NCBI GenBank assembly: GCA_024635585.1
Contig: JAGXIP010000009.1
Coordinates: forward strand, 3,179-67,178
Reading direction: 5' to 3'
Source: Saccharicrinis sp.
GTDB taxonomy: Bacteria; Bacteroidota; Bacteroidia; Bacteroidales; Marinilabiliaceae
Length of the DNA: 64,000 bases
Shown: positions 596-46,710 of the stretch, piece by piece
Numbering within the stretch: position 1 is the first letter of the stretch
How the letters are laid out: each line of letters opens with the position of its first letter
Notes under the pieces: model-generated
What the model saw: only the letters and a program-made list of their open reading frames with translations
Told to the model about the DNA's origin: nothing
Database searches by the model: none
Translations under genes and position numbers: made by a program

Positions 596-608
596 GACAA
601 ATATTTTT

Positions 609-1556: not shown

Positions 1557-1608
1557 AAAGTTTTATTTTTAGATAAATCTTGCAAGTAAAACAACCAACC
1601 CAAGGCAG

Positions 1609-10934: not shown

Positions 10935-13900
10935 TTATTTGTTCACTACTTTTTTGGTAATCACCTTGTTCCCGGAAACCAATCTAACAACATACATTCC
11001 TTTTAACCTATTACTTATATCTTCCGTATGGCACTTCTCATTAATCTTTTTATTTAAAATTAATGAACCCGAAAGACTAAATAAATTTAATTGGTAATCT
11101 ACAGCATTTTCAACAGATAACACTCCGTTATTGATCCAAACCTGTATCTCCGATTGTTCGGCTAAACTTGTGCTCATCATTTCCAAAGTTGAATTCTTAA
11201 GAGATTCACCATTAGTTAAAACTACATCATCCACAAAGCCAACTCCCTGAGTCCGATTCGTAATAAATACCTGCAACCATGTAGTATTTGCAGGAATCAC
11301 TATCTCAGCATTTAATTGCTCGTAAGTGGTTCCTGTAAACGACAATGTTTGAATAGTTGTACTACCATTTTTAATAGCCACATCAACTCGGTTTCCTGCA
11401 GATAAGACTTTTCCCCAGGCACTAAAAGAATAGGTTTCTCCCACTTCGTATCCTAGCACATTTTGTTGTACCCATGACCAACTGGTGGAACCAACACGTA
11501 AAGCTTTGCTTCCGCTTTGCACCTCATTGGTTACTACCACAACGTCTCCTTTAGTTACAGTCCACGATTGCAAACTGCTTTCAAATCCGGGATTAAGAAT
11601 TAGGTTTTGCGATGGCGTACCTCCACCTCCTGAAGGTGATGTAACGGTTATTAAGCTGGTTGCCTTTTTGCTGCCGTCTTGAGTAGTAACAGTAACGGTA
11701 GCTGATCCAGCAGACAGGGCACTAACAAGACCATTGCTGCTAACGGTTGCCACTGCTGAATTACTTGAAGTCCAAGAAATATTTTTATTGGTGGCATTCG
11801 ATGGGGAAACTGCAGCCGACAATTGAGAAGTTTCGCCTTGTAATAATGCTACAGAAGAGAAACTAACAGACACCCCAGAAACAGGCACATCAGCCGCACC
11901 TTCGTACAAAGCAATATCGTCTACAAAACCACTTCCACTGCTTCCGTTTGTAACAAAAACCTGCACCCAAGTACTATTCAACGGAATTACGATTTCTGCA
12001 CTCAATTGCACGTAACTGGTACTGGTAAATGACAGTGTTTTAATGGTAGCACTTCCGTTTTTGATGGCAACATCTACTTTGTTGCCATTAGATGCAGCTT
12101 TTCCCCATGCGCTAAATGTATAGGTGCTGCCGGCTTTATACCCCTGCAGGTTTTGCTGTACCCACGACCAACTGGTGGAACCGATGCGCAAAGCTTTACT
12201 TCCACTATGCATGTCGGTGGTTGCAGCCACAGCATCTCCTTTGGATACAGTCCACGATTGCAAACTGCTTTCAAATCCCGGATTAAGAATCAGGTTTTGT
12301 GATGGAGTACCTCCACCTCCAGAAGAACTTGGTGTTATGGTTATTGAGCAAGTAGCCTTTTTGTTTCCATCCACAGTAGTTACTGTAATAATCGCACTTC
12401 CTTCGCCCACTGCACTAACAAGACCATTGCTAACGGTGGCAATTGAACTATTGCTGGTACTCCAACTCACTGCTTTATTGGTAGCATTGGTGGGACTCAC
12501 TGTTGCAGTCAACTGTTTTGTGCTATTGTTTACAATAGAAGCAGATGATGATGAAAGACTAACGCCTGTTACTGGAACATTGGTATTTTCTACATTGTAG
12601 ACATCCAGACGGTCAGCAACGATGGTATTGCCGGTTGAAGCGCTATTTTTTTGTCCGCTTACGGATACCCTGATGGTATGTTGCTCTTGTGTTAATACGG
12701 GACTTGTCCAAACAAGCTGCTCATTCTGGCGAACAGAGGCATAAAAATCCACTGATACAGCCGATCCCCCATTCAGAGATACATTGGCAATACCATGATG
12801 AGAAGCTAATGCGCCATACATTTTAACCTGGGTTCCAAAAAATGTATACTCCCAGTAAGAGCCCGTTACACTTGAATAGTGGTCATCATCCAGATACTTA
12901 CCAGTACCCGAAGATATACTCCAGCCACTAGAAAAAGTAAACTGGGTATCGTTGATTGATGTAACAGGATCCGATGACGTGGTTACAACATTTATAAGTG
13001 ATGACTTAGATGATACATTCCCTGCGGCATCGTAGGCACTCACACCAATAGAATAGGATGTATTTGGCAATAATCCTGTAACGGTTGTTGATGCAGAGGA
13101 TGATGTTTTCTTTTCTACCCCATTTACAAAAACCTTATAGCCGGCAACACCTACATTGTCAGAAGAGGCGTTCCATGCGAGCCCTACAAGGCTGGATTCC
13201 ACGCTTGTGGATCGTAGGCTTGTGGGTGTGGAAGGAGGGGTATTATCCACTACACCTGAAGAAGGTATATACACATCTTCCTGATTGATGGCATTTTTAT
13301 GGTTGTAAATAGCGGCCAGTGCAGCTTTTTTCACTGGATCGTTGAGTCTGGTGTCGATCCATTCTCCGTCCCATAGCATGAACCATCTGTATTCAGGACG
13401 GTTTTGCATCATCCAATCTACGCTTGGAAGAACCATATTTACATTGTAACCCTCTCCAATGGCCAAAGGTTTGCCTTGTGCTTTGGTTACCAGGTAATCG
13501 TAATCACCCTGGCTAAGGAAACCAGACTGATTCCAATAGTAATCGTCAATTCCCAACATATCAACATACGCAAGACCTGGGAACCATGGATCGGGCACCC
13601 TGTCGTTGTTCCAGCTGGTAAAATGATTGGGGCACCAGAACCAAATCAGGTTGTTAAGTCCATGGGTTTTAACCATGTAATTATAGGTATTGATCCACAA
13701 TGTCTTAAAATGCGTACGAGCAGCATCTCCTCCACCCCACCAAAACAGTCCGTTCATTTCGTGGTAGGGCCGCCAAACAACGGCGTATCCTTCATTCTGA
13801 AGTTCTTTCAGAAATGGGATAATCCTGTCCATGTTTCTTTTCCAATTGTTGTAAAGGGTGGTACCAGGAGTAACCAGCTGTTGGTATTCGTCCATGGTTA

Positions 13901-14399
13901 ACCTGGCTTGTTGAACATTGCTCCAACCATCATTCTCCTCTAGCTTAGGAGTCACCATGTGATAGGTTAAGGTGATTATGGAACCTGCGTCGGCTTGGGC
14001 TTTGGCAACCTGGATCATTCTTTGGCGAGCGTCCTGCAATTGCGCGATGGAATAATTGGGATCGGTGAAAGAAAAATCACTTCCCCACAAACCAGGGTAA
14101 TGGCCAAGATTGTTTTTAACCGAATTGGTAGCCCTTATGGCTAAATCATTTAAACTCCATGTTCTTGAGTAGTTATGTTGTCCCGTCATCAAACCCTGAG
14201 TCTTCAGGTTATAGATGTAACGATAAACATCTTTCGCCTTCTGGGTGGCGTTGGGATTAACTAGCTCCGGAGCTTGAGCGTGAGCCTGAAACATGAATAG
14301 CAACAAGCCCATGATCAGCGTCAATCGCAAAGTAAGATACATTCTTTTCATTTTGTAGATTTTTTTACTGTTTACAATAATTATTAAACTACACACCAA
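10935..14399 (-). CDS. Multimodular GH26 beta-mannanase: GH26-Fn3-beta-sandwich-(Big_2-CBM4/9/16-like)x2-T9SS CTD; likely start 14351
   Basis: WRPYHEMNG acid/base, LAIGEG nucleophile, WFMLW; DNTPPSTP Fn3; two VPVxGVS...NLILNPGFE repeats; KGMYVVRL...KKVVNK CTD. Confidence 0.9.
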   Translation of the reverse strand: MVCSLIIIVNSKKIYKMKRMYLTLRLTLIMGLLLFMFQAHAQAPELVNPNATQKAKDVYRYIYNLKTQGLMTGQHNYSRTWSLNDLAIRATNSVKNNLGHYPGLWGSDFSFTDPNYSIAQLQDARQRMIQVAKAQADAGSIITLTYHMVTPKLEENDGWSNVQQARLTMDEYQQLVTPGTTLYNNWKRNMDRIIPFLKELQNEGYAVVWRPYHEMNGLFWWGGGDAARTHFKTLWINTYNYMVKTHGLNNLIWFWCPNHFTSWNNDRVPDPWFPGLAYVDMLGIDDYYWNQSGFLSQGDYDYLVTKAQGKPLAIGEGYNVNMVLPSVDWMMQNRPEYRWFMLWDGEWIDTRLNDPVKKAALAAIYNHKNAINQEDVYIPSSGVVDNTPPSTPTSLRSTSVESSLVGLAWNASSDNVGVAGYKVFVNGVEKKTSSSASTTVTGLLPNTSYSIGVSAYDAAGNVSSKSSLINVVTTSSDPVTSINDTQFTFSSGWSISSGTGKYLDDDHYSSVTGSYWEYTFFGTQVKMYGALASHHGIANVSLNGGSAVSVDFYASVRQNEQLVWTSPVLTQEQHTIRVSVSGQKNSASTGNTIVADRLDVYNVENTNVPVTGVSLSSSSASIVNNSTKQLTATVSPTNATNKAVSWSTSNSSIATVSNGLVSAVGEGSAIITVTTVDGNKKATCSITITPSSSGGGGTPSQNLILNPGFESSLQSWTVSKGDAVAATTDMHSGSKALRIGSTSWSWVQQNLQGYKAGSTYTFSAWGKAASNGNKVDVAIKNGSATIKTLSFTSTSYVQLSAEIVIPLNSTWVQVFVTNGSSGSGFVDDIALYEGAADVPVSGVSVSFSSVALLQGETSQLSAAVSPSNATNKNISWTSSNSAVATVSSNGLVSALSAGSATVTVTTQDGSKKATSLITVTSPSGGGGTPSQNLILNPGFESSLQSWTVTKGDVVVVTNEVQSGSKALRVGSTSWSWVQQNVLGYEVGETYSFSAWGKVLSAGNRVDVAIKNGSTTIQTLSFTGTTYEQLNAEIVIPANTTWLQVFITNRTQGVGFVDDVVLTNGESLKNSTLEMMSTSLAEQSEIQVWINNGVLSVENAVDYQLNLFSLSGSLILNKKINEKCHTEDISNRLKGMYVVRLVSGNKVITKKVVNK
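11205..12585 (-). repeat. Intragenic tandem repeat, ~690-bp period (Big_2 + CBM module x2)
   Basis: CACGATTGCAAACTGCTTTCAAATCC recurs at ~11563 and ~12253; protein repeat GGGGTPSQNLILNPGFESSLQSWTV. Confidence 0.85.
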
Positions 14400-14552
14400 G
14401 TTTGATATGAATACCTCTTACACATATAAATTCAACTCATAGACCATTTTGATGATATCAATCCCATACTAAAGCTATATATTGTATTGATTGCACAAGT
14501 AAGAATAAAGTAGACCAACACTTTGCCCTCACATAAAGGGCAAAGTGAGATC
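14366..14552 (-). repeat. Conserved upstream block of the large GH26 (copy 1), with hairpin 14519-14547
   Basis: Shares GAGTTTGATATGAATACC-like, TTGATTGCxCAAGTxAGAATAA and CACTTTGC...GCAAAGTGAGATC segments with 16825-17007. Confidence 0.75.
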
Positions 14553-14718
14553 GCACATTTTGATACATGTGTTCTTGTAGGTATTATTCAAAATCAATTG
14601 ATGTTAAATTAGGTCAAACCGCCAAAACAAATGGGCGTTATGACTAGAACCCAAATTTTAGAAAGATGATGGGTTGGCTCTATCGCACTAAATCCAAAAT
14701 GGATTAATCTTCCAACCT

Positions 14719-16815
14719 TTAATTAATAATCTTTGAGGAATATAATTTACCCTTGCGAACAACATAAACGATGTACATTCCCTTAGGAAGGTTAGATATA
14801 TTAAGGACTTCGGAATTACTTTTTAAAATGACATTTAAAACACTTGATCCAGTTAAATTTAAAAGAGATAACTTGCCATCGGCAGCATTGGTAATATGAA
14901 GAGAATTATTACCCCAGGCTTTAACACTCAAAATTTCATTATCTGAAAGAGAAGTTGAAACACTCTTGGTCAACACAAAATTATCTGCGTAAGCAAAATT
15001 ATCACCCTGCACATTTTCAATAAATACTTCCACGGAAGTATTGGCTGCACCCATTGTAAAGTCAATGGATAAGGGTGTCCATTCATCCTGAACCAAACTT
15101 GCAGTTCCTGTTGCATCAAACACATGAGCCTCAGCTAATTCGTCGCCACCATAATTGCGCACGCCGGCACGTACTTCTTCAACAGTAGTGCTTGTATTAT
15201 TTCTTAGCACACCCGTCAATTGATAATTAGCGCCAGCCGTTAACCCATTAACAACCTGTATTCCACCAAATAAATCATCAACTTTATAAGCAAAGTGATT
15301 GGCTCCGGAATAAGGAAAAAAACTGTATGTCCTTAATTGATTTGCATCCCCACTCCAGCCGGTCAATCCATCTTCAAAATCGCCATTAACCAATAAATTG
15401 GTACCGTCTCCTGGCTCGGGATCTGGATCCGTTCCAGCTTCTAGCGTTGTAACCACTAAAGGCGTGCTTTCAACAGATCGGTTCATATAATGGTCTCTGC
15501 CCTTTACAGTAATAGAATATTCAGTTTGTGGATTTAATCCAGTGATTGTGGTGCTATTATTAAAGATGAATTTACTAAAATCACCATCCACAAAAACCTC
15601 ATATCCAGAAACACCGTTATCATCGGTAGATGTATTCCATTGCAATTTAACTTGGCTGGATTCCACACTAGTGGTTTGCAGATTTACAGGAATAGAAGGA
15701 GGAGTTAGATCCTCTACATTTGCAGGCGGAATATACACAACATCCTGATTGATTGCATTTCCATGATTGTAAATTTGGGACAATGCTGCTTTTTTTTCCG
15801 AGTCGTTCAACCTATCGTCAATCCATTCGCCATCCCATAACATGAACCATCGGTATTCGGGACGGTGTTCCTTCATCCATTCCACACTTGGAATCTCCAT
15901 GTTGACATTGAAACCTTCGCCAATGGCCAATGGTTTACCTTCAGCTTTATTAACCAGGTAATCGTAATCACCTTGACTAAGGAAACCAGGCTGATTCCAA
16001 AAATAATCATCTATACCTAATACGTCAACATACTGAAGACCCGGGAACCATGGATCGGGAACCCTATCGTTGTTCCAACTAGTAAAATGATTTGGACTCC
16101 AAAACCATATCAAATTGTTTAAGCCATTATCGTTAACCATATAATTATAGGTATTGATCCATAATTGCGTAAAATGAGTCTTTGCGGCATCTCCTCCGCC
16201 CCACCAGAACAGTCCGTTCATTTCGTGAAAAGGGCGCCAAACAACGGCATAATTTTCATCCTGCAACTCTTGCAGAAAAGGGATAATCCTATCTAAATTT
16301 CTTTTCCAATTATTATAAAGGGTTGTACCAGGCGTAACTAAATCCTCGTATTCGCTCATGGTCAACCTAGCTTGTTGAACATTGCTCCAGCCCTGATTCT
16401 CTTCAAGTTTAGGAGTCACCATGTGATAAGTTAAGGTAATAATAGAACCTGCATCGGCTTGTGCTTTGGCCACGTCAATCATTCTTTGTCGGGTATCCTG
16501 CAATTGCGCAATGGTATATCCAGGATCTGTATAAGAAAAGTCGCTTCCCCATAAACCCGGGTAATGTCCAATAATGGTATTAACAGAGTTAGTAGCACGA
16601 ATTCCTGTATTACTTCCATTCCAAGTTTTGGCGTAATTGTGTTGCCCTGTCATCAAACCTTGATACTTTAGGTTATAGATGTACCTGTATACATCTTTTG
16701 CCTTTTGTGTAGCATTGGGATTAACTAGCTCTGGCGCCTGAGCGCGAGCCTGAAATATGAATAGAGACAGTACCATGATGAGCGTTAATCGCGAAACAGG
16801 ATGTATATTAATCAT
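14719..16815 (-). CDS. GH26 beta-mannanase: GH26-Fn3-CBM(4/9/16-like)-T9SS CTD
   Basis: WRPFHEMNG, LAIGEG; catalytic domain closely paralogous to 10935-14399; NLLVNGDFEDG module; KGMYIV...SKIIN CTD. Confidence 0.9.
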   Translation of the reverse strand: MINIHPVSRLTLIMVLSLFIFQARAQAPELVNPNATQKAKDVYRYIYNLKYQGLMTGQHNYAKTWNGSNTGIRATNSVNTIIGHYPGLWGSDFSYTDPGYTIAQLQDTRQRMIDVAKAQADAGSIITLTYHMVTPKLEENQGWSNVQQARLTMSEYEDLVTPGTTLYNNWKRNLDRIIPFLQELQDENYAVVWRPFHEMNGLFWWGGGDAAKTHFTQLWINTYNYMVNDNGLNNLIWFWSPNHFTSWNNDRVPDPWFPGLQYVDVLGIDDYFWNQPGFLSQGDYDYLVNKAEGKPLAIGEGFNVNMEIPSVEWMKEHRPEYRWFMLWDGEWIDDRLNDSEKKAALSQIYNHGNAINQDVVYIPPANVEDLTPPSIPVNLQTTSVESSQVKLQWNTSTDDNGVSGYEVFVDGDFSKFIFNNSTTITGLNPQTEYSITVKGRDHYMNRSVESTPLVVTTLEAGTDPDPEPGDGTNLLVNGDFEDGLTGWSGDANQLRTYSFFPYSGANHFAYKVDDLFGGIQVVNGLTAGANYQLTGVLRNNTSTTVEEVRAGVRNYGGDELAEAHVFDATGTASLVQDEWTPLSIDFTMGAANTSVEVFIENVQGDNFAYADNFVLTKSVSTSLSDNEILSVKAWGNNSLHITNAADGKLSLLNLTGSSVLNVILKSNSEVLNISNLPKGMYIVYVVRKGKLYSSKIIN

Positions 16816-16824
16816 TTATAGAAA

Positions 16825-17007
16825 TTTTTGACTGTTTATAAATATGCATTAAACTCCTTTATGAGTTTGATATGAATACCCTTTGAGTACTCTGTGGTAA
16901 ACTATACATAGACTTCTTTTTATGAAATACGGATATTATGTTGATTGCGCAAGTCAGAATAAGTTCGATCAACACTTTGCCCCTTTAAGCTGGAGCAAAG
17001 TGAGATC
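16825..17007 (-). repeat. Conserved upstream block of the second GH26 (copy 2)
   Basis: See 14366-14552; stem CACTTTGC/GCAAAGTG conserved, loop diverged. Confidence 0.75.
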
Positions 17008-17067
17008 TTAAAATATAGTAGCTAAATCCTATCGGACTGAATCCTTATCGGATAAATCGGCTAATCT

Positions 17068-17832
17068 TTAATTGATGATTTTTGCGGAATACATTTTGCC
17101 TTTTTGTAAAACACAAACAATGTACATTCCTTTAGGAAGGCTAGATAAATTAATGACTTCGGAATTACTTTGCACAATAGTGTTGAGGTTGCTCGAACCT
17201 GCAAGATTTAATATAGAAAGTTGTCCTCCGGCCGCATTCTTGATATTAAGAGAACCATTGTTAACCCATGCTACAACACTCAATATCTTGTTGTCTGCGA
17301 GCGAAGTTGAAACACTCTTCGTTAAAATAAAATTATCTGCATATGCAAAATTATCACCCTGCACATTTTCAATAAATACTTCCACAGAAGTATTGGCTGC
17401 CCCCATTGTAAAGTCAATGGAGAAAGGTGTCCATTCATCCTGAACCAAACTTGCGGTTCCAGTTGCATCAAACACATGATTTTCAGCTAATTCATCGCCA
17501 CCATAATTGCGCACACCAGCTCGAACTTCTTCAATAGTAGTACTTGTATTGTTTCTTAGCACACCCGACAATTGATAATTAGCACCAGCCGTTAACCCAT
17601 TAACAACCTGTGTTCCACCAAATAAATCATCTACTTTATATGCAAAGTGTTTGAGACCAGAATAAGGAAAAAAATCGTACGTTCTTATTTGAGCTGCATC
17701 CCCAGTCCAACCGGTCAATCCATCTTCAAAATCGCCATTCACGAGCAAATTAACAGATCCATCCTGTGCAGAAACATGATTTGCCAACATTATTGTGAAG
17801 GCAATTAAAATAATGGTAAATCTTCTTTTCAT
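17068..17832 (-). CDS. Non-catalytic signal peptide-CBM-T9SS CTD protein
   Basis: NLLVNGDFEDGLTGW...FAYADNF module almost identical to the CBM of 14719-16815; no catalytic domain. Confidence 0.85.
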   Translation of the reverse strand: MKRRFTIILIAFTIMLANHVSAQDGSVNLLVNGDFEDGLTGWTGDAAQIRTYDFFPYSGLKHFAYKVDDLFGGTQVVNGLTAGANYQLSGVLRNNTSTTIEEVRAGVRNYGGDELAENHVFDATGTASLVQDEWTPFSIDFTMGAANTSVEVFIENVQGDNFAYADNFILTKSVSTSLADNKILSVVAWVNNGSLNIKNAAGGQLSILNLAGSSNLNTIVQSNSEVINLSSLPKGMYIVCVLQKGKMYSAKIIN

Positions 17833-17961: not shown

Positions 17962-18522
17962 TGTTGCAAATAGTAAATTATTGTAGTCAAACTTTAAAGC
18001 AAGTGCAAGATATTATTCGACAGGCATTGTGTTACTTGTCATTTAAACCAAAATTCCATGTCAAACCATTCAAGTGCTAAAAAGCCATATAGAATGTAGG
18101 CTACAATGGGTATTTTTTTCTCTTACAATCACAATAGTTCACAATTTAAAACCAGAAAACCCTTTTGAGTAGATGCAAACTACAACCGATGAGCACCTAA
18201 AAGCAAAAAAACGCCTGAGGTGATTACCCCGACGTTTTTTATTAAAATAATTCGATAAATCAATTGCAGATAAAATTGATTATTAATCCGCTTCAATGTA
18301 AAAAACATGGTCGCGATAAGTGCAGACATCTGGATAACCATTGGTTCCAGGCATTAAACTGGTCCGTTCCTTGAAGTCTGATGATAAAAAAGCACTCTTC
18401 ACAGCAAGTTCATTTGCGGAATCGTTAAGCAATTTGGAGGGATCAAATGATACCGGTGGAAACTTACCATTCCCTTCGCGCCGAATACCATGACCTCCGG
18501 CATAACAACCGACCGACCAATT
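17962..18522. repeat. 561-bp direct repeat, copy 1
   Basis: Aligns by eye without net indel to 20716-21276 (offset 2754), roughly 90% identical by inspection. Confidence 0.92.
18205..18240. terminator. Bidirectional intrinsic terminator inside the repeat (second copy ~20959-20994)
   Basis: AAAAAAACG...CGTTTTTT stem flanked by A and T runs after the stop at 18283. Confidence 0.65.
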
Positions 18523-18650
18523 GACACGTGTAAAACTGCGTTTATTGCCTATTGCTTCAATCATTCTCAAAAAAGCATACCTATTTAAAAACTTGGTTTT
18601 CGGGCACAATGAATTGCAAAAATCGACCTTTTAGCAAAGTGTGATCTGGA
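18283..18650 (-). pseudogene. Truncated, frameshifted paralogue of the 346-aa lipoprotein (3' part only)
   Basis: ORF 18283-18609 matches the C-terminus of 21037-22077; an upstream frame gives PDHTLLKGRFLQFIVPE vs PDHPDLKGKFLQYIVPE; no 5' half. Confidence 0.85.
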
Positions 18651-18737
18651 GGTTCTTGCACGAAATTGGTTCTTTTTCCTTTCGTGTATAAAGGGGGGAG
18701 CCGCCAATTTTAAGCTGTGTATCCTGTCAAATACTTT

Positions 18738-20525
18738 TTATCGTTTAATGATTTTTTCGTTGAAGATGGCTTGCCCGTTTGAATCCAAAATCCTTAGAAT
18801 GTATAATCCATTGCCTAGGTGACCGGTATTCAGTGTGACACTATTCAAAGCTTTTTCGTAAGATTGGTGCACTTTTCGTCCATCCATGGTATATAGCTCA
18901 ACTAAAAGATCGAAGGAGTTGTTCCTGGCTTCTATGGTGATGTGATTTCTGAAAGGATTAGGATAAACGGAAAGCGACGGTTCCGGAGCTTCGAAGAGCT
19001 TATCCACAGAAGTGGCGCTTCCCATAATGGTGGCCATTCTGGGCTCAGACCTGTTGTGGAAGAAATCTCGGGCACGGACTTCGATAATGGTATCGCCGGT
19101 AAATGTAAATTCGTCTGATAAAAGGAAGGTGTCTTTTGTAAATGCCACACGCTGTCCTTCAATATATAAATCATAGCCGGTGATCATGCGATCATCAAAG
19201 GATGCATGCCAGTTGACAAGTAATTGTTCACCTGCCCTATAGATTGCAGCCTCTGTAACTGTGGTAGGGACCTGTAAGTCAGGAGATTCATCCATATAGG
19301 CATTAAAAAGGGCTCTTCCGGTGTGGTAAGAGGTTTTCCAAATGTGGCCTTTGCTCGAAGTCGCTGCGGATGCTCTGGTGTCTAAGCCCGTGGAATACCA
19401 GCCTCCATACACATCGTCTATCGCGTATTCTTTAATGTATGCCCATTGTTTGTTGAATAAATCCTGGTATTGTGTTTCTTCCGGATATAATTTTTTCATG
19501 AGCAACAGGGCGTTTAATCCCTCAGCTGTTGTCCACCAGTTTTTTTCAGAATCAATTATGTAATATCCAGGATCGTTGAATTTACCAGCGTTATATATTC
19601 CGCCTTTGTCGTTGTCATAGCCATGCATGAGGGTGATGCCAACAATTTCTTTGATAAAACCCATTATGTCCTCAGGGATATCCTCCTCCATTAACTGATA
19701 AGCATCATGAACGAGGTAGCCGACTTGGACGTTATGACCGAATGATACCTCGTTAAATTTATTGGTTGATGGGGTGAGATCACGCTTAAAGTAGGTATAA
19801 AGGAATCCTTCCGGACCCCTTAATCTTTGGTCCAGCAGATAGATAATGTTATGAATGGCATCATACAGCTGTTGGTTCGGCCAGACATCATACAATGTTG
19901 CGTAGGCTTCTAGCAGGTGCATCACATTATTGTGCTCCTTATCGTCTGATAGATCAGGCACCCCACTCCTTGAGGTATACTGAAAATAGCTGTTGTATTC
20001 TTTGTCGCGACCGTGGTCTTCCACCCAGAGAAAAGTTTTAATGGCCAGATCCAGTGCTTCCTCATCACCCGTGAGAAGGTAGTACATACTTAAGCCATAA
20101 ATGGCGAAAGCTTCACCATAGATCCTCTTCTTGCTTTCCAACTGAGTATTGCCTGTCCGGTCGAGGTGATAAAAGAAGCCGCCATGTTGTTGATCCCACA
20201 TCTTATCCTTGATGAAATTGAAACCATGTGTGGCTAGGTCGGTATACATCTTTTCTTCAGGAAAGAGCAGTGCCGCACGTGAAGTAACCCACAAGTGCCT
20301 GCTTTGCGAAACAATCATTTTGGTATGTTGACCGGAAGGGGTCCAGTCGTATTTGAAATCGGAGCGGTATCCGCCATAAACGGCATCTTTGGCCAGAGGA
20401 TACCAGGCTTTTAAAGTTTTGTCTACAAGGTAATGCTCAAAACTTTGAGCATTTAAGTTTCCAAAAAGCAAACTCAGAAGGCTGATAAGGATCCATCTTT
20501 TCAGATGAGTGTAAGTTTTTATCAT
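18738..20525 (-). CDS. AGE-family (cellobiose/mannobiose 2-epimerase-like) enzyme with signal peptide, Fn3-like domain and T9SS CTD
   Basis: SQSRHLW, YGEAFAIYGLS, NNVMHLLEAY, SFGH, KNWWTTAE and WKTSYHTGR motifs; SLSVYPNPFRN...GLYILRI...KIIKR CTD. Confidence 0.88.
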   Translation of the reverse strand: MIKTYTHLKRWILISLLSLLFGNLNAQSFEHYLVDKTLKAWYPLAKDAVYGGYRSDFKYDWTPSGQHTKMIVSQSRHLWVTSRAALLFPEEKMYTDLATHGFNFIKDKMWDQQHGGFFYHLDRTGNTQLESKKRIYGEAFAIYGLSMYYLLTGDEEALDLAIKTFLWVEDHGRDKEYNSYFQYTSRSGVPDLSDDKEHNNVMHLLEAYATLYDVWPNQQLYDAIHNIIYLLDQRLRGPEGFLYTYFKRDLTPSTNKFNEVSFGHNVQVGYLVHDAYQLMEEDIPEDIMGFIKEIVGITLMHGYDNDKGGIYNAGKFNDPGYYIIDSEKNWWTTAEGLNALLLMKKLYPEETQYQDLFNKQWAYIKEYAIDDVYGGWYSTGLDTRASAATSSKGHIWKTSYHTGRALFNAYMDESPDLQVPTTVTEAAIYRAGEQLLVNWHASFDDRMITGYDLYIEGQRVAFTKDTFLLSDEFTFTGDTIIEVRARDFFHNRSEPRMATIMGSATSVDKLFEAPEPSLSVYPNPFRNHITIEARNNSFDLLVELYTMDGRKVHQSYEKALNSVTLNTGHLGNGLYILRILDSNGQAIFNEKIIKR

Positions 20526-20585
20526 TTTCTTGCTATTATTTAGAACTGTTTAAGGTTTATTTTTAGAGTTTATTCGTTATAGAGT

Positions 20586-20637
20586 AAAAAAATGAGCGCC
20601 TGACAGATAAAATAATTCTACCAAGGCTACTCATTTT
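20586..20637 (-). terminator. Intrinsic terminator just after the susD remnant
   Basis: Minus strand AAAATGAGTAGCCT...AGGCGCTCATTTTTTT. Confidence 0.65.
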
Positions 20638-20651
20638 CTAAAGGGTATGTA

Positions 20652-20714
20652 TTATTCCCAACCTGGGTTTTGTATCAGCTTTTTGTTCAATTCAAGCTGG
20701 GTTACTGAGAAGGT
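20652..20714 (-). pseudogene. 3'-terminal remnant of a susD/ragB gene
   Basis: Hand translation TFSVTQLELNKKLIQNPGWE*; the L.QNPGW* ending is the typical SusD C-terminus; abuts the repeat boundary at 20716. Confidence 0.7.
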
Positions 20715-20715
20715 C

Positions 20716-21276
20716 TGTTGCAAATAGTAAATTATTGTAGCCATACTTTAAAGCAAGTGCAAGGTATTATTCAATAGGCATTGTGTTACTTGTCAATTAA
20801 ACCAAAATTCCATGTCAAACCATTCAAAGGCTAGAAAGCCATATAGAATGTAGGCTACAACGGGTATTTTTTCCGCTTACTATCACAATAGTCCACAATT
20901 TAAAACCAGAAAGCACCTTTGCGTAGATGCAAACTACAACCGATGAGCACCTAAAAGCAAAAAAACGCCTGAGGTGATTACCCCGACGTTTTTTATTAAA
21001 ATAATTCGATAAATCAATTGCAGATAAAATTGATTATTAATCCGTTTCAATGTAAAAAACATGGTCGCGATAAGTGCAGACATCAGGATAACCATTGGTT
21101 CCAGGCATTAAGTTAATCCGTTCCTTGAAGTCTGATGATAAAAAAGCACTCTTCACAGCAAGCTCATTTGCAGAATCGCTAAGCAATTTGGAGGGATCGA
21201 AGGGTACCGGGGGAAACTGACCATTCCCTTCGCGCCGAATACCATGACCTCCGGCATAACTACCTACCGACCAATT
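20716..21276. repeat. 561-bp direct repeat, copy 2
   Basis: See 17962-18522. Confidence 0.92.
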
Positions 21277-22077
21277 TGCCAGAGTGAAGCCTCTATCCTC
21301 TCCTATCTCATCAATCATAAGCATAAAAGCATAGCGCTTGCCGGGTTCAAGAATGATATCTGAGGTCTCAGGAACAATATACTGCAAGAATTTACCTTTT
21401 AAATCGGGATGGTCCGGCGATACCGCCACCGTATCGTTATCAAAACCAAAATCCTTTTTAAGAGGAAACTGGTATCCGCTGAATACTTCTATAGATTTAA
21501 ATTCCAATCCTTCATAATAATCATCCCGATGGTGGGCAATTGCCTCACTGTATCGGTTATGCGGAAATCCATGCAAGGCACTCATAGTACTATCGCTGCC
21601 ATTATTATTAAGCGTGCCGTTGCCAATTACCTTCAAAAACTGCAATGATATATTTTGTCCGTACATGCCTTCACGCACCACATTGGAACCAAAACCTAAG
21701 CGAACGGTAACGGATTTCAGTTGTTTAGCACTCAACGAGTCTGGATAAGTAAAAATTTGTCCCAGATCACGATTTCGCTTAAGATAAGCCACCTCGTGCC
21801 CCTCCTTTGTAAAATAACCAAAACCACCCGTCTCTTCAACGGATTCGCCTGACCATTTAATGGAAACACTGGAATCATTAGCCACTGAGGTGTTACCTTC
21901 ACGACTAAACCCCTCATTAAACACCACAACATTTCCCATCCGTACAGTATCGGATAACATCAGGATTTGATCAGATGAAGACGACACAGATGGGCTACAT
22001 CCCCCCAAGACCAATTCACCAATTAAAAAAACAAATACTGCTTTTTTAAGATTATTTAAAGCTAAAAAACCTATCAT
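21037..22077 (-). CDS. Hypothetical lipoprotein of unknown function
   Basis: Lipobox VLGGC; no family recognised; conserved GGHGIRREG and TNGYPDVCTYRD; decayed paralogue nearby supports coding status. Confidence 0.75.
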   Translation of the reverse strand: MIGFLALNNLKKAVFVFLIGELVLGGCSPSVSSSSDQILMLSDTVRMGNVVVFNEGFSREGNTSVANDSSVSIKWSGESVEETGGFGYFTKEGHEVAYLKRNRDLGQIFTYPDSLSAKQLKSVTVRLGFGSNVVREGMYGQNISLQFLKVIGNGTLNNNGSDSTMSALHGFPHNRYSEAIAHHRDDYYEGLEFKSIEVFSGYQFPLKKDFGFDNDTVAVSPDHPDLKGKFLQYIVPETSDIILEPGKRYAFMLMIDEIGEDRGFTLANWSVGSYAGGHGIRREGNGQFPPVPFDPSKLLSDSANELAVKSAFLSSDFKERINLMPGTNGYPDVCTYRDHVFYIETD

Positions 22078-22189: not shown

Positions 22190-24325
22190 TTACTTCACTA
22201 AAACCTCATCTTCCGAAACAATCTGGCCATTAAACCATCCTTCGGCAATAATCTTATCACCGGTTATCTCCACATTATTCCATTGAAAACGCGTATCGCC
22301 TCTTGGCCCGGCATTTTTAATATTTGTGCCTAATAGCAGTGATTTATCTCCATTATATAAGCTTACCGAATCGCAATTGCTATACGCCCATATTCTGGCA
22401 TCCTTTGCATGTTCTTTATTATCAGTCCATGTGCTTGGTACAATATATAACATGGGATAATCACTGGCTTCGCGATACATACTTTGATACATATAATACA
22501 CATCCTTTTTGGTAACATGATCATGCATTATTAAACCTTTTTGATTCATAAAAGGAATTGGATTTGTATTACGCTCTAACCTAGGGGACGCAAAATCGAA
22601 TCCGATCCACGCAAAATGCCCAGGGAAACTATCTTTATATGCTTCTCCTATCGACACTTTGTATTCATGTAAAAATGCGCCGTATTCTTGCGACCAGAAT
22701 TCAGGTTTTCCTGAAGCACTATAATCCACATTGGCATCAAAAACTTCGTTGCTACGATTATTTACATCCACATCGGCACCATGCTCCCCAATAATCTCTT
22801 TTGGCTTATAAGATGCTGCCGTATTGCGATACCACCCTCCCCAATTCTGAGGTGAATAAACATCTACTAAATTTTGATTAGACTCATAATTAAAATTACA
22901 ACCCGTTACCGTTCTATTGGGATCAAGTTCCCTGCCTAGTTTTACTAATGCACCAAAAACTTTATTAGACACGGCTTCACCACCTCCGGAGCGATCCGAT
23001 TCGTTTCCAATACCCCAAATTATAACAGCCGGATTATTGTAATGCTGCTCTATCATTTCCTTCATCTGGCTTTTGCAATTCTCTAAAAACAATGGATTTT
23101 CAGAAGTACTTCCAGTTAAAGGGATTTCTAACCAAAGCATCATCCCCATTTCCATAGCAGCTTTTGCAAAAGCCTGATCACTTGGATAATGTGCATGTCG
23201 AATAAAGTTGAAGCCCGCGTCTTTGAGTAAACGAACATCTTTAACATGCTGCTCATTAGACAAAGCATAGCCTACGCCTTCCATATCCTGATGCCTATTG
23301 ATTCCTCTAATAAGTAACTTTTCACCATTCAACTTAAATGGCTGATGATTGGCAAGAGAATAATATCTAAAACCAAATACACTTTCGAACTGATCTACCT
23401 CTATGCCATCCACACTTAACGATGATTTTACTTGGTACACATGAGGAGAATCCGGACTCCATAAAAACATATCTCCTATGGATGACTCCGATTGTGTAAT
23501 AGTTACTGATTCTCCGGCCGGTATAATCTTTTTCCTTTTTAAAGTAGTTACTTCCTCACCTTTTGGGTTATAAACAACAGTAGTAAGCACGGTTGTTTTT
23601 TCCTTTTTAGAATAGTTTTTAATATGCGTATTCATGGTTAATACGGCAGCAGCCGCGCCACCGCAAACCGGGGTGTTAAAAACATTTTCAATTTTCACTT
23701 CATCCGTAATTGTTAACCACACGTCTCTGTAAATTCCACCATAAACAGCGTAATCAAAACTATAAGGATATGGAAGTTTCTCATCCGCCATCCAAGGAGC
23801 AATAGCCGAATTGTTCGTATTGTCGGCTCTTACCACTAAGGTATTTGATTTTCCGAAATTGATATAATCAGTTACGTCAAGTGAAAAAGCAGTATAGCCC
23901 CCTTCGTGCTTACCTACCTCTTTACCATTGACCCAAACTGTGGCCACTAAAGAAACGGCTTCAAACTCAACAAAAACTCTTTTCCCTGCATACTTATCAT
24001 CCATACTAAATTGGGTCCGATAAAAAGCCGGACCTTTATACATGGTGCGATTATCTGGATCAAATTTAAAATCAAATCGTCCTTTAAACACATCGTCATT
24101 TACACCATCAATTCCACCGTTAAAATCGTGAGGAATGCTTACCGACAACCAATCCTGATCGTCGAATTTTGTTTTAAAACCATTTTTTACGTCTCCCTTC
24201 TTAAACTTCCACACATTATTATTTAATGAATAACGTGTGCGCTCAAATCCTTCGTCGGGACTAATGAAACTTAAAAACATCAGCGATATCAATCCCGATG
24301 CGATAAAAAAAATTGTATTCTTCAT
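22190..24325 (-). CDS. GH2 glycoside hydrolase (substrate uncertain)
   Basis: HEGGYTAF, YGGIYRDV, GINRHQD, IRHAHYP and WGIGNE motifs. Confidence 0.9.
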   Translation of the reverse strand: MKNTIFFIASGLISLMFLSFISPDEGFERTRYSLNNNVWKFKKGDVKNGFKTKFDDQDWLSVSIPHDFNGGIDGVNDDVFKGRFDFKFDPDNRTMYKGPAFYRTQFSMDDKYAGKRVFVEFEAVSLVATVWVNGKEVGKHEGGYTAFSLDVTDYINFGKSNTLVVRADNTNNSAIAPWMADEKLPYPYSFDYAVYGGIYRDVWLTITDEVKIENVFNTPVCGGAAAAVLTMNTHIKNYSKKEKTTVLTTVVYNPKGEEVTTLKRKKIIPAGESVTITQSESSIGDMFLWSPDSPHVYQVKSSLSVDGIEVDQFESVFGFRYYSLANHQPFKLNGEKLLIRGINRHQDMEGVGYALSNEQHVKDVRLLKDAGFNFIRHAHYPSDQAFAKAAMEMGMMLWLEIPLTGSTSENPLFLENCKSQMKEMIEQHYNNPAVIIWGIGNESDRSGGGEAVSNKVFGALVKLGRELDPNRTVTGCNFNYESNQNLVDVYSPQNWGGWYRNTAASYKPKEIIGEHGADVDVNNRSNEVFDANVDYSASGKPEFWSQEYGAFLHEYKVSIGEAYKDSFPGHFAWIGFDFASPRLERNTNPIPFMNQKGLIMHDHVTKKDVYYMYQSMYREASDYPMLYIVPSTWTDNKEHAKDARIWAYSNCDSVSLYNGDKSLLLGTNIKNAGPRGDTRFQWNNVEITGDKIIAEGWFNGQIVSEDEVLVK

Positions 24326-24488: not shown

Positions 24489-27689
<3,201 letters not shown>

Positions 27690-27716: not shown

Positions 27717-30700
27717 TTATGATTTTTCGGTATATTTTGATGGCGTAACTCCAAACTGCGACTTGAAGCATTTTCTGAAATAATCGAGATCAGAAAAACC
27801 GACCATGTAAGCCACTTCGGAAATGGAGTTGCTATTTTGGGTAATAATTTGGCCTGCTCGTTTGATTCGCAACATCCGAATAAATTCTACCGGAGAAAAA
27901 TCTGTTATCGCCTTCAATTTCCTGAAAAGCTGAGAACGGCTCATACCCACATCCTGACATAGGACATCCACATTATACTCTGAATCACTCATATGAGATT
28001 CTACACTCTGAATGGCACTTTCTATGAATTTTTCCTCCATGGAAGGGATGTTCACTTTACCCGGAGACAATGCCAACCCTTTGCCGAATATCTGCCGCAA
28101 TTTAATTCTATTATCAATTAAGTTTTTTATGCGTACCAGAAGATGGCCAATTTCAAACGGCTTTGAGATATAATCATCGGCTCCCAATTGGTATCCTTCC
28201 ATTCTACTTCCTTCATTTGCCTTGGCTGTAAGTAATATCACCGGTATGTGCGATGTTCGTTCGTCTTCTTTTACAGCTTCGCACAGTTGAAAACCATCCA
28301 TTCGTGGCATCATTACATCCGATATAATTATGTCTGGGAGCTTTTCAAATGCCAACTGCATTCCGTCTTCACCATCGTTTGCGGTAATTACAGAATAACT
28401 AAGGCTCAAACGTTCGGCAATATACTCTCGCAAATCCTGATTATCCTCAACCAGCAACACGATGGATGCATTGCTTATTTCAGTTGTTTCAGTATAAAAA
28501 TTTTTCGAATCGGCTAAACTCTCCAGGCTTCCCTCGCCCAAGCCACTAAATACAACTTGGGGAGACAATTGTATATTATCCTCGGAATAATCATCCGCCG
28601 AGGCAGGGACTCTTAAAATAAATTTGGATCCCTCGCCTGGGGCACTGACCAAATCGATGCGACCCTTATGAACCATCGCCAGTTGATTTGAAAGAGAAAG
28701 ACCAATACCGGTACTGGGGGCGCTAAAAACATCTTTATTAAAAGCATAGTACCTTTCAAATATCCTTTTTTGGTTTTCCAAAGAAATACCTACCCCATTA
28801 TCCTGAACAACAATTTCAATTTCCTGATTTTGATTTTCATGTATAAAAACAAATACATCTATACTGCCTCCATTGGGCGTGTTTTTAAACGCATTGGATA
28901 TAAGATTATACATGATTTTTTCAATTTTGTCGCTATCGAAATAAACCATTGCTTTTTCCACACTACAGTGGAAGTTATAAAAAACACCAGCATCTTCTGC
29001 TTTAAAAGAAAAGGCTTCAAAAATTGATCGGGCATAACTAACGATGTCACCTTGAGATATATTTAACCGAATATGCCCAGCCTCTATTTTAGAAATATCC
29101 AAAAGCTGATTAATCAACTTTAACAAGCGCAAGGAATTTTTATATATAAGATTAACCTGCTTTTTAAGTGAAATAGATAATTCGGGCATTACTGAAATTT
29201 CTTTTAGCGGAGAAATGATTAACGTAAGTGGAGTGCGGAATTCGTGAGAAACATTACTAAAGAAAATACTCTTGAAATAATCTATTTCACGGATTTTGTC
29301 CAACTCCATTTTCTCAATTTTCAGTCGCGATTCGGTTTTTTGTTTGGCCAGTACCAGCCGTGCAAAGCCAATAATTGATAAGGTTAACAATATTAAATAA
29401 AGTAAAAAGGCCTGCCATGTCTGCCATGGTGGAGGCAACACCTGAACAGCAAGACTCGCGCCTTCCATATTCCAAATGCCATCACTATTGGATGCTCGCA
29501 CTTTAAAATTATATTTGTCTGGTTTTAAGTTGGTATACGTTACCGATCGTTGGGAACCAACCGCCACCCAGTCGTTATCAAATCCCTCCAATTTATATGC
29601 ATATTGGTTGTTATCGCTATTTGTATACGACAGTGCAGCATATTCAATGGTAAGTACCGGCTGCTTGTAGTTGAGTACCACTTCATCTGCCTTTTCGATA
29701 CTTTTTTTCAATGTTTTACTTTCAGGGTCGGCTTTAAAATTGGTATTCATTATTTTTAACCCTGTAAGTACTACCGGAGGTTTATAAGGATTTACCTTGA
29801 TACTATCCGGAAAAAAAGAACTGATTCCATAAACGCCCCCTAAAAACACTTCTCCATTTGCAAACTGATAAATAGCCCCTGGGCGAAAGCTAACATCCAA
29901 CAATCCGTCTCTAGCCCCATAATTAATAAAGGTTATTTCAAAATCATTTAGATTATTAAAAGTCACTATTTCGCCGTTTGTTTGGATAATAAGTTTAGAT
30001 ACCCCACCATCCGTTGCTGTCCAAATATTTCCATTGCTATCCTCAAAAATGGAAGAGACAGAATTTCCTGCCAAACCTTCATTGATGGAGAAGTTTCTAA
30101 ATTTGCCCGAGTAATCCACAGCACACGACAGACCTGCTGAGGTGCCTATCCATAACATGCCTCGTCTATCCTGAAATATTTGTCGAACAAAACCATTGGA
30201 TAAAGAAGATGCATCATTAAGATTGTGTCGAAAAACTGTAAATGAGTTGGTGTCTATATTAAATCTGTTTAAACCATTATTGGCACCTACCCATAAAACA
30301 CCGTTTTGATCTTCGTATATGGTTGTAACATGCTTATGACTTAATGAACCCACGGTAAAAGGTGTTGATTCGTAAACAACAAAGCTGTCAGTCAATCGCT
30401 GGTGTACAAATAATCCATTTTGAGTTCCAACCCAAATGGTTTTTCTGCTATCTTCAAACAGAGCAGTACAAAAACCAGGCATAACCAACTCTGCTGCTGA
30501 GGGATCTGACTTGTATCGCCAAAGTCCTTTATTTGTGGCTACCCATGTAATTCCAAAACTATCGAATAATATGGCAGGTACATACATACCGGAAAGGTAA
30601 GATTTGTCATTTTGATCAATAACAAAACGATTGCTTTTTGATTTAAGAACTTGGCTGGGTAAAGAATAAAAGCCTGAATCTGTTCCAATTAAGCATTGTC

Positions 30701-31853
30701 CCTTAGCATCTATCTGAATGCAGTTAAAATGAACGGGACGAGGAGGAAAAATGCCTTTTGAAACACGAGGGGTAAAACGTTTAGAAAGCGGATCCCATTT
30801 GTCGGCATAGCCCTCCCAGCCTCCAAGCCATATTACCCCTGAACTGTCTTGAGTAATGGACCAAACTGCATTGTTACTTATGCTGTTTGGATTATGTATG
30901 TCGGAATAATAATATTCGACAGAATCACTTTTAGGATCAAAAACATTCAATCCATTCTCGGTACCAATCCAAACCACACCGTGGTTATCTTCAAATACAG
31001 AATAAACAATATTACTAGACAACTTTCTGCTGGCATTCCCTTCTGTATGAAAATGTGTAGAACTACCATTACTGAAATTTACACGAATAACACCTTGCCC
31101 ACGCGTTGCAATCCAAATATTTTGTTTTGAATCTTGATAAAGATCCCAAACAAAATATTTGGGCGACTCATCGCTGTTATCCATGTATTGCAAAATATCG
31201 TAGTGCTGCTGTGTTCCTTTTTCTGGATCAAACAAAAACAGACCAAGGGAATAAGTGCCAACCCAAAAATTTTCACTCTTATCTTCCAAACACGCCATTA
31301 CGGCTCTATTAAGTTGCTTTGATATAGGGTTTTCTTCCATGTAGTAACGATCAAATTTACCGGTTTGCTGATTCAGCTTATTTAAACCGTCCTCGGTGCA
31401 TACCCAAATATCATCACTCTTATCCTGATAAATGCTAAGGACATCATTATGGCTTAAAGAATTTTCGTCCTTTTCATTGTAAACATATCGTTTAAAATAA
31501 TCGTAGTCCGCTACATATCTATTTAATCCACCACCAACAGTGCCCACCCAGAGCACCCCGTTTCTATCTACCAACAAAGATCGAATATGGCTGGATCCAA
31601 TACTGCTAACATCACCAGCAGTATATCTATACTCTTTTGTTTCGTAACCATCATACCGCCATAAACCATCGCGGGTGGCAAACCACATAAATCCGCTATG
31701 ATCCTGGACAATGGCAAAAATAGTTGTCTCGGACATTTTTTTAGGAATAGCCCGTTCAAAGGCATAATCTTGCGAATAGCTAACTGAAATAAATTGACAA
31801 GCCACCATCATAAATAAAATCAAATTGCTCTTCATTGTCATTATGCTTCGCAT
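27717..31853 (-). CDS. Hybrid two-component sensor/regulator (HTCS)
   Basis: Reg_prop repeats, Y_Y_Y, TM, SHEFRTPL HisKA, HATPase, ISDVMMP receiver, AraC HTH. Confidence 0.95.
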   Translation of the reverse strand: MRSIMTMKSNLILFMMVACQFISVSYSQDYAFERAIPKKMSETTIFAIVQDHSGFMWFATRDGLWRYDGYETKEYRYTAGDVSSIGSSHIRSLLVDRNGVLWVGTVGGGLNRYVADYDYFKRYVYNEKDENSLSHNDVLSIYQDKSDDIWVCTEDGLNKLNQQTGKFDRYYMEENPISKQLNRAVMACLEDKSENFWVGTYSLGLFLFDPEKGTQQHYDILQYMDNSDESPKYFVWDLYQDSKQNIWIATRGQGVIRVNFSNGSSTHFHTEGNASRKLSSNIVYSVFEDNHGVVWIGTENGLNVFDPKSDSVEYYYSDIHNPNSISNNAVWSITQDSSGVIWLGGWEGYADKWDPLSKRFTPRVSKGIFPPRPVHFNCIQIDAKGQCLIGTDSGFYSLPSQVLKSKSNRFVIDQNDKSYLSGMYVPAILFDSFGITWVATNKGLWRYKSDPSAAELVMPGFCTALFEDSRKTIWVGTQNGLFVHQRLTDSFVVYESTPFTVGSLSHKHVTTIYEDQNGVLWVGANNGLNRFNIDTNSFTVFRHNLNDASSLSNGFVRQIFQDRRGMLWIGTSAGLSCAVDYSGKFRNFSINEGLAGNSVSSIFEDSNGNIWTATDGGVSKLIIQTNGEIVTFNNLNDFEITFINYGARDGLLDVSFRPGAIYQFANGEVFLGGVYGISSFFPDSIKVNPYKPPVVLTGLKIMNTNFKADPESKTLKKSIEKADEVVLNYKQPVLTIEYAALSYTNSDNNQYAYKLEGFDNDWVAVGSQRSVTYTNLKPDKYNFKVRASNSDGIWNMEGASLAVQVLPPPWQTWQAFLLYLILLTLSIIGFARLVLAKQKTESRLKIEKMELDKIREIDYFKSIFFSNVSHEFRTPLTLIISPLKEISVMPELSISLKKQVNLIYKNSLRLLKLINQLLDISKIEAGHIRLNISQGDIVSYARSIFEAFSFKAEDAGVFYNFHCSVEKAMVYFDSDKIEKIMYNLISNAFKNTPNGGSIDVFVFIHENQNQEIEIVVQDNGVGISLENQKRIFERYYAFNKDVFSAPSTGIGLSLSNQLAMVHKGRIDLVSAPGEGSKFILRVPASADDYSEDNIQLSPQVVFSGLGEGSLESLADSKNFYTETTEISNASIVLLVEDNQDLREYIAERLSLSYSVITANDGEDGMQLAFEKLPDIIISDVMMPRMDGFQLCEAVKEDERTSHIPVILLTAKANEGSRMEGYQLGADDYISKPFEIGHLLVRIKNLIDNRIKLRQIFGKGLALSPGKVNIPSMEEKFIESAIQSVESHMSDSEYNVDVLCQDVGMSRSQLFRKLKAITDFSPVEFIRMLRIKRAGQIITQNSNSISEVAYMVGFSDLDYFRKCFKSQFGVTPSKYTEKS

Positions 31854-46504: not shown

Positions 46505-46593
46505 TCGTTTATAATTAATAATTTTTATTAAACAATTTTAAACAAACAAAAGGTGATATGTAACGTTTTTTCTCTATTTTTAACTAGATTTCA

Positions 46594-46610
46594 CCGGGAG
46601 CGATACCGAA
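46594..46610. promoter_or_regulatory. Candidate LacI operator between amidohydrolase and lacI
   Basis: CCGGGAGCGATACCGAA resembles 3071-3087; perfect palindrome TACCATATGGTA at 46639-46650 nearby. Confidence 0.45.
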
Positions 46611-46710
46611 AACATCCCACACAAATAAACGATGCGGGTACCATATGGTATTTAAATTACATCACTAGTAATAAGCACATTACACAGCTACTTCACAAAC
46701 TTAATTCTTT

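Follow-up and report, generated by a model that had tools for sequence, protein, structure and literature searches.

In the window (the whole 64-kb stretch of DNA that was analysed), all the genes around the fossil and the epimerase gene described below lie on the minus strand. Their order, given 5′ to 3′ on that strand, is a hybrid two-component regulator (27717-31853), two GH2 genes (24489-27632 and 22190-24325), a gene of 346 aa, a spacer, the fossil segment, the epimerase gene, a CBM gene and two GH26 genes. This cluster also holds GH3 and GH5 enzymes in addition to the GH26 mannanases and the GH2 enzymes. The 346-aa gene (21037..22077) is intact, lipoprotein-like and the upstream neighbour of the insertion. 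It had no family match in a Pfam search, an LGGC lipobox is seen in its translation, and its orthologue is present in Marinilabiliaceae bacterium UBA5213 (77% nt identity). The 321-nt spacer that follows (20716..21036), copy B of a direct repeat, has a homologous spacer in UBA5213 and contains a terminator-like hairpin (20984..20971) that belongs to the 346-aa gene itself.

Behind spacer copy B, we found the segment of interest (fossil tail and terminator, 20586-20714) and a short leader (20526..20585), of which the proximal ~36–50 nt are homologous to the leaders of the orthologues of the next gene. This gene (18738..20525) is intact and encodes an AGE-family (GlcNAc 2-epimerase-like) protein of 595 aa. 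It is followed by a 3′ flank of about 70–87 nt (18669..18737) with no convincing homologue found, by a pseudogene fragment of the 346-aa gene (18283..18668; residues ~221–346 as located by tblastn), and by spacer copy A (17962..18282), which runs on into ancestral sequence toward the CBM gene. The latter (CBM4_9 with a T9SS C-terminal domain by Pfam; 17068..17832) is the downstream neighbour of the insertion and has an orthologue in UBA5213. A resident SusC/SusD pair (41971-45135 and 40193-41896) is located 20 kb from the fossil. Two other features of the region were observed. Paralogous repeats with offsets of ~2.35–2.46 kb link the two GH26 genes and the stand-alone CBM-CTD gene (window 10935-17832), and the repeat families D2, D3, D5 and D8 reflect a CBM-CTD/GH26-Fn3 module duplicated in tandem. 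The 711-aa GH2 gene (22190-24325) has an unrelated 421-aa ORF as its counterpart in UBA5213 (L177:7311-8576), which is a second gene-content difference within otherwise syntenic DNA.

The fossil spans 132 bases on the minus strand (20715..20584) and consists of the last 20 codons of a SusD gene, the stop codon and a terminator hairpin. The coding part (20652..20715) comprises one base of the preceding codon, the 20 codons (20714..20655) and the stop (20654..20652); the frame reads ...QQ and then TFSVTQLELNKKLIQNPGWE up to the stop. Homology to SusD loci begins exactly at the repeat junction 20716/20715 and ceases at the end of the T-run. A preliminary description of this DNA had placed a fossil susD tail and a terminator directly upstream of the epimerase, with coordinates almost exactly as found here. 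It had also stated that the tail starts at the repeat junction and is unlike the end of the resident SusD. We observed the same: the direct repeat ends exactly at 20716, and the resident protein (40193-41896) ends in ...MMPQNNGY.

To place the short peptide, we translated the 4.85-Mb genome in six frames and scanned its 154,938 stop-terminated segments for the motif QNPG[WY] not more than four residues from the stop. Nine segments contained the motif: six correspond to SusD ORFs of full length, and another is clearly the tail of a SusD. An N..L. ahead of the motif was seen in just two segments of this genome, the fossil and one real SusD. The QNPGY ending of own-genome C10 (YLLPIPTAEREIMPQLEQNPGY; frame +1, aa 81-134) clearly belongs to another SusD tail; its 54-aa frame may be a SusD that was truncated or shifted in frame. 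The ending of C299 (frame -2) looks like a chance occurrence. In metagenome contigs, a strict 14-residue pattern gave no match. The pattern LNxxLxQNPGWE followed by a stop matched at least 120 loci; most of the listed matches are the ends of 540–660-aa ORFs, and the shorter frames among them are mostly at contig ends or have the same tails. A degenerate pattern gave a single match in 400 genomes of the order (G229), a SusD gene followed by a heparinase-like gene, which shows QNPGWE before the stop as a SusD ending.

The best of the listed matches, L086, ends in TFSVTQIELNKALEQNPGWE and is identical to the fossil at 17/20 residues; both have TFSVTQ, which replaces the usual PIP..E. A homologue search with the L086 SusD as the query led to a tight clade (P0121–P0125). 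Its member P0122, a 544-aa protein with PF14322 and PF07980, ends in TFSVTQLELNKALVQNPGWE (18/20 residues identical to the fossil), and P0121 and P0123 are each identical at 17/20 residues. At the DNA level the best relative is the P0122 locus (L168): an ungapped alignment of 129 nt to window 20715..20587 shows 84.5% identity, and 58/64 nt agree in the coding part (20652..20715). Outside the 39 nt that were set by the search pattern, L168 and the fossil agree at 24/25 nt upstream, and at 51/68 nt downstream of the stop. When P0122 was used in tblastn against the window, the fossil was recovered with E = 6e-7, and no other SusD fragment was found except the unrelated resident SusD.

These identities (18/20 aa and 84.5% nt to SusD relatives) confirmed that the peptide singled out in the preliminary description is a true SusD remnant with its own terminator. 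We conclude that a SusD gene of the P0121/P0122/L086 clade left a non-functional remnant at 20715..20584. This remnant is not part of a complete ~500–600-aa lipoprotein with SusD-like_3 and SusD_RagB domains, as position 20715 is preceded by the duplicated spacer. It also does not lie downstream of a SusC-like TonB-dependent transporter; there is no SusC fragment nearby, and the gene upstream is the 346-aa gene.

The stop codon of the fossil is followed by a SusD-derived intrinsic-terminator hairpin with a run of seven Ts (20586..20639, minus strand, from the fold), where the SusD homology ends. The hairpin (20639..20587) overlaps the T-run (20592..20586), so that a G+C-containing stem stands directly before the U-run, as is expected of an intrinsic terminator. 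The 91-nt hairpin region folds at -21.4 kcal/mol (z = -2.8 relative to shuffled sequences). It is kept in L086, L168 and L169, with four pairs retained via compensatory changes on both sides, and all eight SusD-subfamily loci examined have a strong hairpin after the stop. The window hairpin is the weakest of the eight compared (-19 versus -25 to -31 kcal/mol). A simple terminator scan missed it because of its 9-nt loop. In L086 and L168, the next gene begins ~20 nt past the equivalent hairpin, which means that some read-through of the hairpin must occur where it is native.

We then compared what lies behind this hairpin in different loci. Seven of them (L086, L160, L164, L168, L169, L185 and L186) have at least five kinds of genes after the post-susD hairpin, and the AGE-CTD epimerase of the window is a sixth kind behind the susD hairpin of this clade. 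In the comparisons that were aligned, the homology between loci is lost no more than a few bases from the T-run. It is conceivable, but in our judgement quite improbable, that the conserved hairpin is a preferred exchange point for the cargo genes of PULs, beyond its role as a terminator. If true, hairpin-directed recombination, and not selection filtering random breakpoints, would be a cassette-exchange mechanism for PULs.

The epimerase gene (18738-20525) encodes a signal peptide, an AGE domain (PF07221; 2e-32, 113.2 bits with a cut-off of 23.4) and a T9SS C-terminal sorting domain (PF18962; 1.5e-11, 44.9 bits with a cut-off of 27). The signal peptide and the sorting domain led us to predict that the protein is extracellular. 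The same architecture of signal peptide, AGE domain and T9SS CTD is common to seven full-length relatives. To our knowledge, the characterised cellobiose and mannobiose 2-epimerases are cytoplasmic. An extracellular member of the AGE family may differ in its activity, and the 2-epimerase names given to the gene are automatic annotations.

Several lines of evidence converge on the origin of this gene. Orthologues were absent from all 22 genomes of the same genus, where the best match was 33% identical. The closest relative is found in UBA5213 (87% identity for both aa and nt), where it matches window 18737-20561 at 87% nt identity and is located between a divergent Gfo/Idh/MocA oxidoreductase gene and a dehydrogenase gene. 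The syntenic cluster of UBA5213 is on another contig (C98), in the order GH26, CBM gene, 423-nt spacer, 346-aa orthologue and, farther on, GH2, and is 63–79% identical to the window at the nucleotide level. The site is empty there: the 346-aa orthologue and the CBM gene are separated by the 423-nt spacer only. Between the window and UBA5213, the epimerase has a dS of 0.52 compared to 1.26–3.13 for four syntenic genes, which places the common ancestor of the two epimerases at a much younger age than that of the genomes. Its GC content and GC skew are unlike those of the flanks. From the empty site, the dS values, the composition and the genus-wide absence, we concluded that the epimerase is an acquired cassette. 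The foreign origin of the insert is further indicated by the SusD clade, which is missing in this genome as well as in UBA5213, in addition to the dS and the lack of orthologues in the genus. A search for a vacated donor site showed that the flanks of the UBA5213-type epimerase have only distant paralogues in this genome (49–59% aa identity).

The boundary between the fossil and the epimerase was examined by comparison with orthologues. Those of UBA5213, L030, L033 and L035 (73–87% identical) stand in four unrelated contexts, and all four have a conserved block (...CCTGCCCTTTTGAGCCAAATCTCATGGCTGACCA...) about 50–100 nt before the ATG. This block of ~50 nt (L023:1830-1880; L030:7905-7955; L033:7905-7955; L035:4065-4115) contains the inverted repeat AGCCA-N7-TGGCT and a CATGG direct repeat, and may be a promoter or an operator that travels with the epimerase gene. 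The similarity of the window leader to those of the orthologues is confined to about 50 nt next to the ATG (the match to UBA5213 DNA extends to 20561), and the conserved block is absent. In a five-way alignment, the SusD hairpin (20586-20640) occupies its place. This implies that the cassette is 5′-truncated and begins where a susD terminator ends. A truncated cassette at the gene boundary of a susD of this clade is what would be expected if the epimerase had once followed an intact susD in a PUL operon. On the basis of the junction anatomy, an arrangement of susD, terminator and epimerase probably existed before the truncation.

The preliminary description had proposed that the epimerase came from just downstream of susD in another PUL, and had suggested a search for such donors. 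No susD is present upstream of the epimerase in any of the seven orthologue contexts (54–87% aa identity); the genes found there encode an oxidoreductase, MutS, a ParE-like toxin, a luciferase-like protein, lacto-N-biose phosphorylase and, in two contexts, small ORFs. Similarly, none of the seven SusD-clade loci has an AGE-family gene downstream of susD. In three of these loci the downstream gene encodes a 449-aa protein, an assignment that for two of them was made only from the N-terminal sequence or the size. The other downstream genes encode a GH16-CTD protein, an ABC_sub_bind protein, a 253-aa protein and an ADP-ribosylglycohydrolase. A tblastn search with the epimerase gave no match in the 120 listed loci ending in QNPGWE, and blastn of 20526-20715 against all 310 contigs of this genome gave nothing beyond the region itself. 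The one SusD of this genome with a similar tail (contig C16) shows no DNA similarity and has no epimerase downstream. As no donor locus was found in these searches, the inferred link between susD and the epimerase rests on the junction anatomy. The proposal, therefore, holds in part: the epimerase is an acquired gene, and it is reasonable that it was once just behind a susD, but the donor locus and its assignment to another PUL did not find support.

The insert is bracketed by direct repeats. Positions 17962-18261 and 20716-21015 are 94% identical, and the extended repeat (17962-18512 and 20716-21266; 92–96%) has a period of 2754 nt. The pseudogene fragment of the 346-aa gene has a frameshift and a 5-aa deletion. 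Its identity to the functional copy is uneven: 18283-18512 is 92–96% identical to copy B, whereas 18513-18668 is only 56–67% identical to its counterpart (21267-21436). Over that same counterpart, the functional copy is 75–85% identical to UBA5213. The divergent part falls outside the functional copy and the UBA5213 orthologue, as an outgroup to the two. The identity cliff at ~18512 would mark a boundary of recombination or gene conversion. Such uneven decay is impossible for a young duplicate, and the far part of copy A is therefore best read as incoming DNA; judged from its divergence, it may be foreign or much older. UBA5213 is homologous across 17961/17962, which indicates that spacer copy A preserves the ancestral connection to the CBM gene. 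The unit composed of the fossil, the epimerase, its 3′ flank, the fragment of the 346-aa gene and the second spacer copy is thus an addition to the ancestral order of 346-aa gene, spacer and CBM gene, which is kept in UBA5213. At the other end of the insert, the junction 20716/20715, no homology was observed.

The explanation that best accounts for the whole, and which we regard as probable though well short of certain, brings the fossil and the epimerase together from behind an intact susD, by an integration anchored in homology, into a place where the epimerase is expressed by read-through. In a genome that has not been sampled, the epimerase would have landed immediately downstream of an intact susD and its terminator, and would have become there a promoter-less downstream gene of a PUL operon. 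A fragment that began 61 nt ahead of the susD stop, spanned the epimerase and ran into divergent 346-like sequence would then have entered this lineage. Its right end would have recombined by homology within the 3′ part of the 346-aa gene, at ~18512, and its left end would have been linked, by illegitimate joining, to the spacer end of the sister copy, duplicating ~550 nt of resident DNA (an unequal, interchromatid integration). One homologous and one illegitimate end on two sister copies would give the tandem duplication observed around the insert. Integration of a circle by a Campbell-type event could give a similar product, but it would fit the identity cliff less well. Transformation-driven interchromatid integration that yields tandem duplications has been documented in S. 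pneumoniae (PMC3784515), and is used here as a mechanistic analogy only.

Other readings were weighed against this one. The peptide could resemble SusD by chance, or the tail could be part of a functional micro-ORF, since a 30-codon frame (MATIIYYLQQTFSV...GWE) starts from an ATG in spacer copy B that is in frame with the tail, and might be a real small gene unrelated to SusD. We give this reading practically no credence. The DNA homology to SusD loci extends for 68 nt beyond the stop through the hairpin, the ATG is absent from spacer copy A, and the frequency of the motif in the census of this genome is about 1e-5 per segment. An error of assembly, by which the contig would join different strains and the fossil junction would occur in no single genome, has to be considered for a MAG of 310 contigs with 90.5% completeness and for a region with a ~550-nt repeat of 94–100% identity. 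A false join would, however, require a long shared word, and the spacer and an intact susD share at most ~3 nt at 20716/20715; moreover, the pseudogene fragment, which is frameshifted and has a deletion, is no allelic variant. We regard an artefact as very unlikely. It is also improbable, although less so, that the susD tail with its terminator and the epimerase arrived in two independent events, for example with the tail as filler DNA in the repair of a break. The failure to find a susD-epimerase locus in the 7 + 7 contexts and the 120 listed QNPGWE loci would be accounted for in this way, and the presence of the epimerase in at least seven different contexts indicates that it moves often. 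But this would call for two illegitimate joints no more than 132 nt apart, of which one would coincide precisely with the end of the T-run. As that point is a natural gene boundary in every locus of the SusD clade, a prior operon junction is simpler.

The alternative that deserves the most attention, although we still consider it unlikely, places the susD in this genome. A PUL of the clade on the L164 contig has a LacI gene beside the order SusC, SusD, ABC_sub_bind, 492-aa gene, Amidohydro_2 and GntP, and the best homologues in this genome of all its genes other than SusC and SusD sit in the window: LacI (46711-47733, 55% aa identity), Amidohydro_2 (45437-46504, 49%), GntP (1609-2985, 65%), ABC_sub_bind (609-1556, 39%) and the 492-aa gene (2-595, 52% within the window and 49% over the full gene on the contig). 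The genome could, therefore, have had its own L164-type LacI PUL, with the epimerase inserted behind its susD; rearrangements would later have destroyed SusC and SusD and moved the tail with the epimerase by about 20 kb within the locus. The presence of the fossil on the same contig as these homologues is in favour of this reading. Against it, the fossil is 85–90% identical at the aa level to the clade compared to 39–65% for the other shared genes, which suggests a foreign source, a contrast of which the 20-residue tail is a weak measure because it gives a very imprecise distance. UBA5213, in addition, lacks this type of SusD and has the empty site. Fossil-type SusC and SusD are not found in the window, and a SusD of the clade is absent from this genome and from UBA5213, the best matches being 27–34% identical (34% in UBA5213). 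As a separate observation, the L164-type gene set is split between the two ends of the window (2-2985 and 45437-47733), about 43 kb apart, and is contiguous in L164.

Returning to the favoured explanation, entry of the fossil and the epimerase from behind an intact susD, we considered how the epimerase may be expressed in its present place. The duplicated block had been described as promoter-like, which we could not uphold: neither spacer copy has the full Bacteroidota -7 consensus (TAnnTTTG). A scan for the Bacteroidota -33/-7 pattern found the full consensus in neither of the spacer copies nor in the epimerase leader, and the leader (20526..20585) has no -7 box with at least 5/6 matches between the hairpin and the ATG. 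Sites from a sigma-70 scan were no commoner than in shuffled sequences, and that consensus is unsuited to Bacteroidota. For the CBM gene, better -7-like boxes are found in the unique 129 nt outside the repeat. Attenuation of the epimerase is favoured by the intact hairpin, the loss of the native upstream block, the lack of such a -7 box and the terminator-like hairpin of the 346-aa gene 330 nt farther upstream. Strong attenuation is opposed by the weakness of the hairpin among the eight compared, the leakiness of the native hairpins (L086, L168) and the intact state of the epimerase, with a dN/dS of 0.12. The lineage-specific changes also count against it (18 nonsynonymous to 37 synonymous in the window; 20 to 33 in UBA5213), with no sign of relaxed selection on the window epimerase relative to that of UBA5213. 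Going by these sequence features, the hairpin is probably still at least a partial terminator, and the epimerase would be transcribed mainly by read-through from upstream. For terminators located after susD, the literature offered general descriptions of operons and of read-through only.

The fossil marks the provenance of the epimerase, a promoter-less passenger of a Sus-type operon that would have entered a T9SS-based mannan-degradation cluster. It is a concrete and datable example of the reshuffling of PULs without transposases, and points to homology-anchored integration; it also leads to a testable prediction, namely read-through of the inherited terminator. It helps in reconstructing the assembly of the cluster, and is not a new kind of element, nor does it settle an open question. 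The fossil is a gene fragment left at a recombination junction, a kind of scar that is already known.

Comparison with known systems puts these features in perspective. The fossil resembles the SusD/RagB family (PF07980) in 17–18 of the 20 C-terminal residues, in the QNPGWE end before the stop and in the A-tract, hairpin and T-tract that follow the stop, but it keeps only 20 of ~544 codons and lacks the start codon, the lipobox, the TPR-like body and an adjacent SusC. With the Rho-independent terminators located after susC/susD in PUL operons, it shares a stable hairpin and seven Us behind the susD stop; unlike them, its terminator ends no susD transcript and sits between a non-coding spacer and an unrelated gene. 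The epimerase has the full-length domain of the AGE-family epimerases/isomerases (cellobiose/mannobiose 2-epimerase, PF07221; 2e-32), and differs from them by the signal peptide and the T9SS sorting domain, being predicted to be extracellular. We know of no natural competence in the organism of this Saccharicrinis MAG, and neither a transposase nor an integrase is present near the insert. The insert shares with homology-anchored duplication-insertions (Campbell-type integration, homology-facilitated illegitimate recombination and transformation-induced merodiploidy; PMC3784515) the foreign DNA flanked by resident direct repeats, the combination of one homologous and one illegitimate end, and the empty site in a relative. 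The duplications in transformation-induced merodiploidy are of 100–900 kb (PMC3784515) compared to ~0.55–0.69 kb here, where the event is deduced from one assembled sequence, the MAG of an uncultured member of the Bacteroidota.
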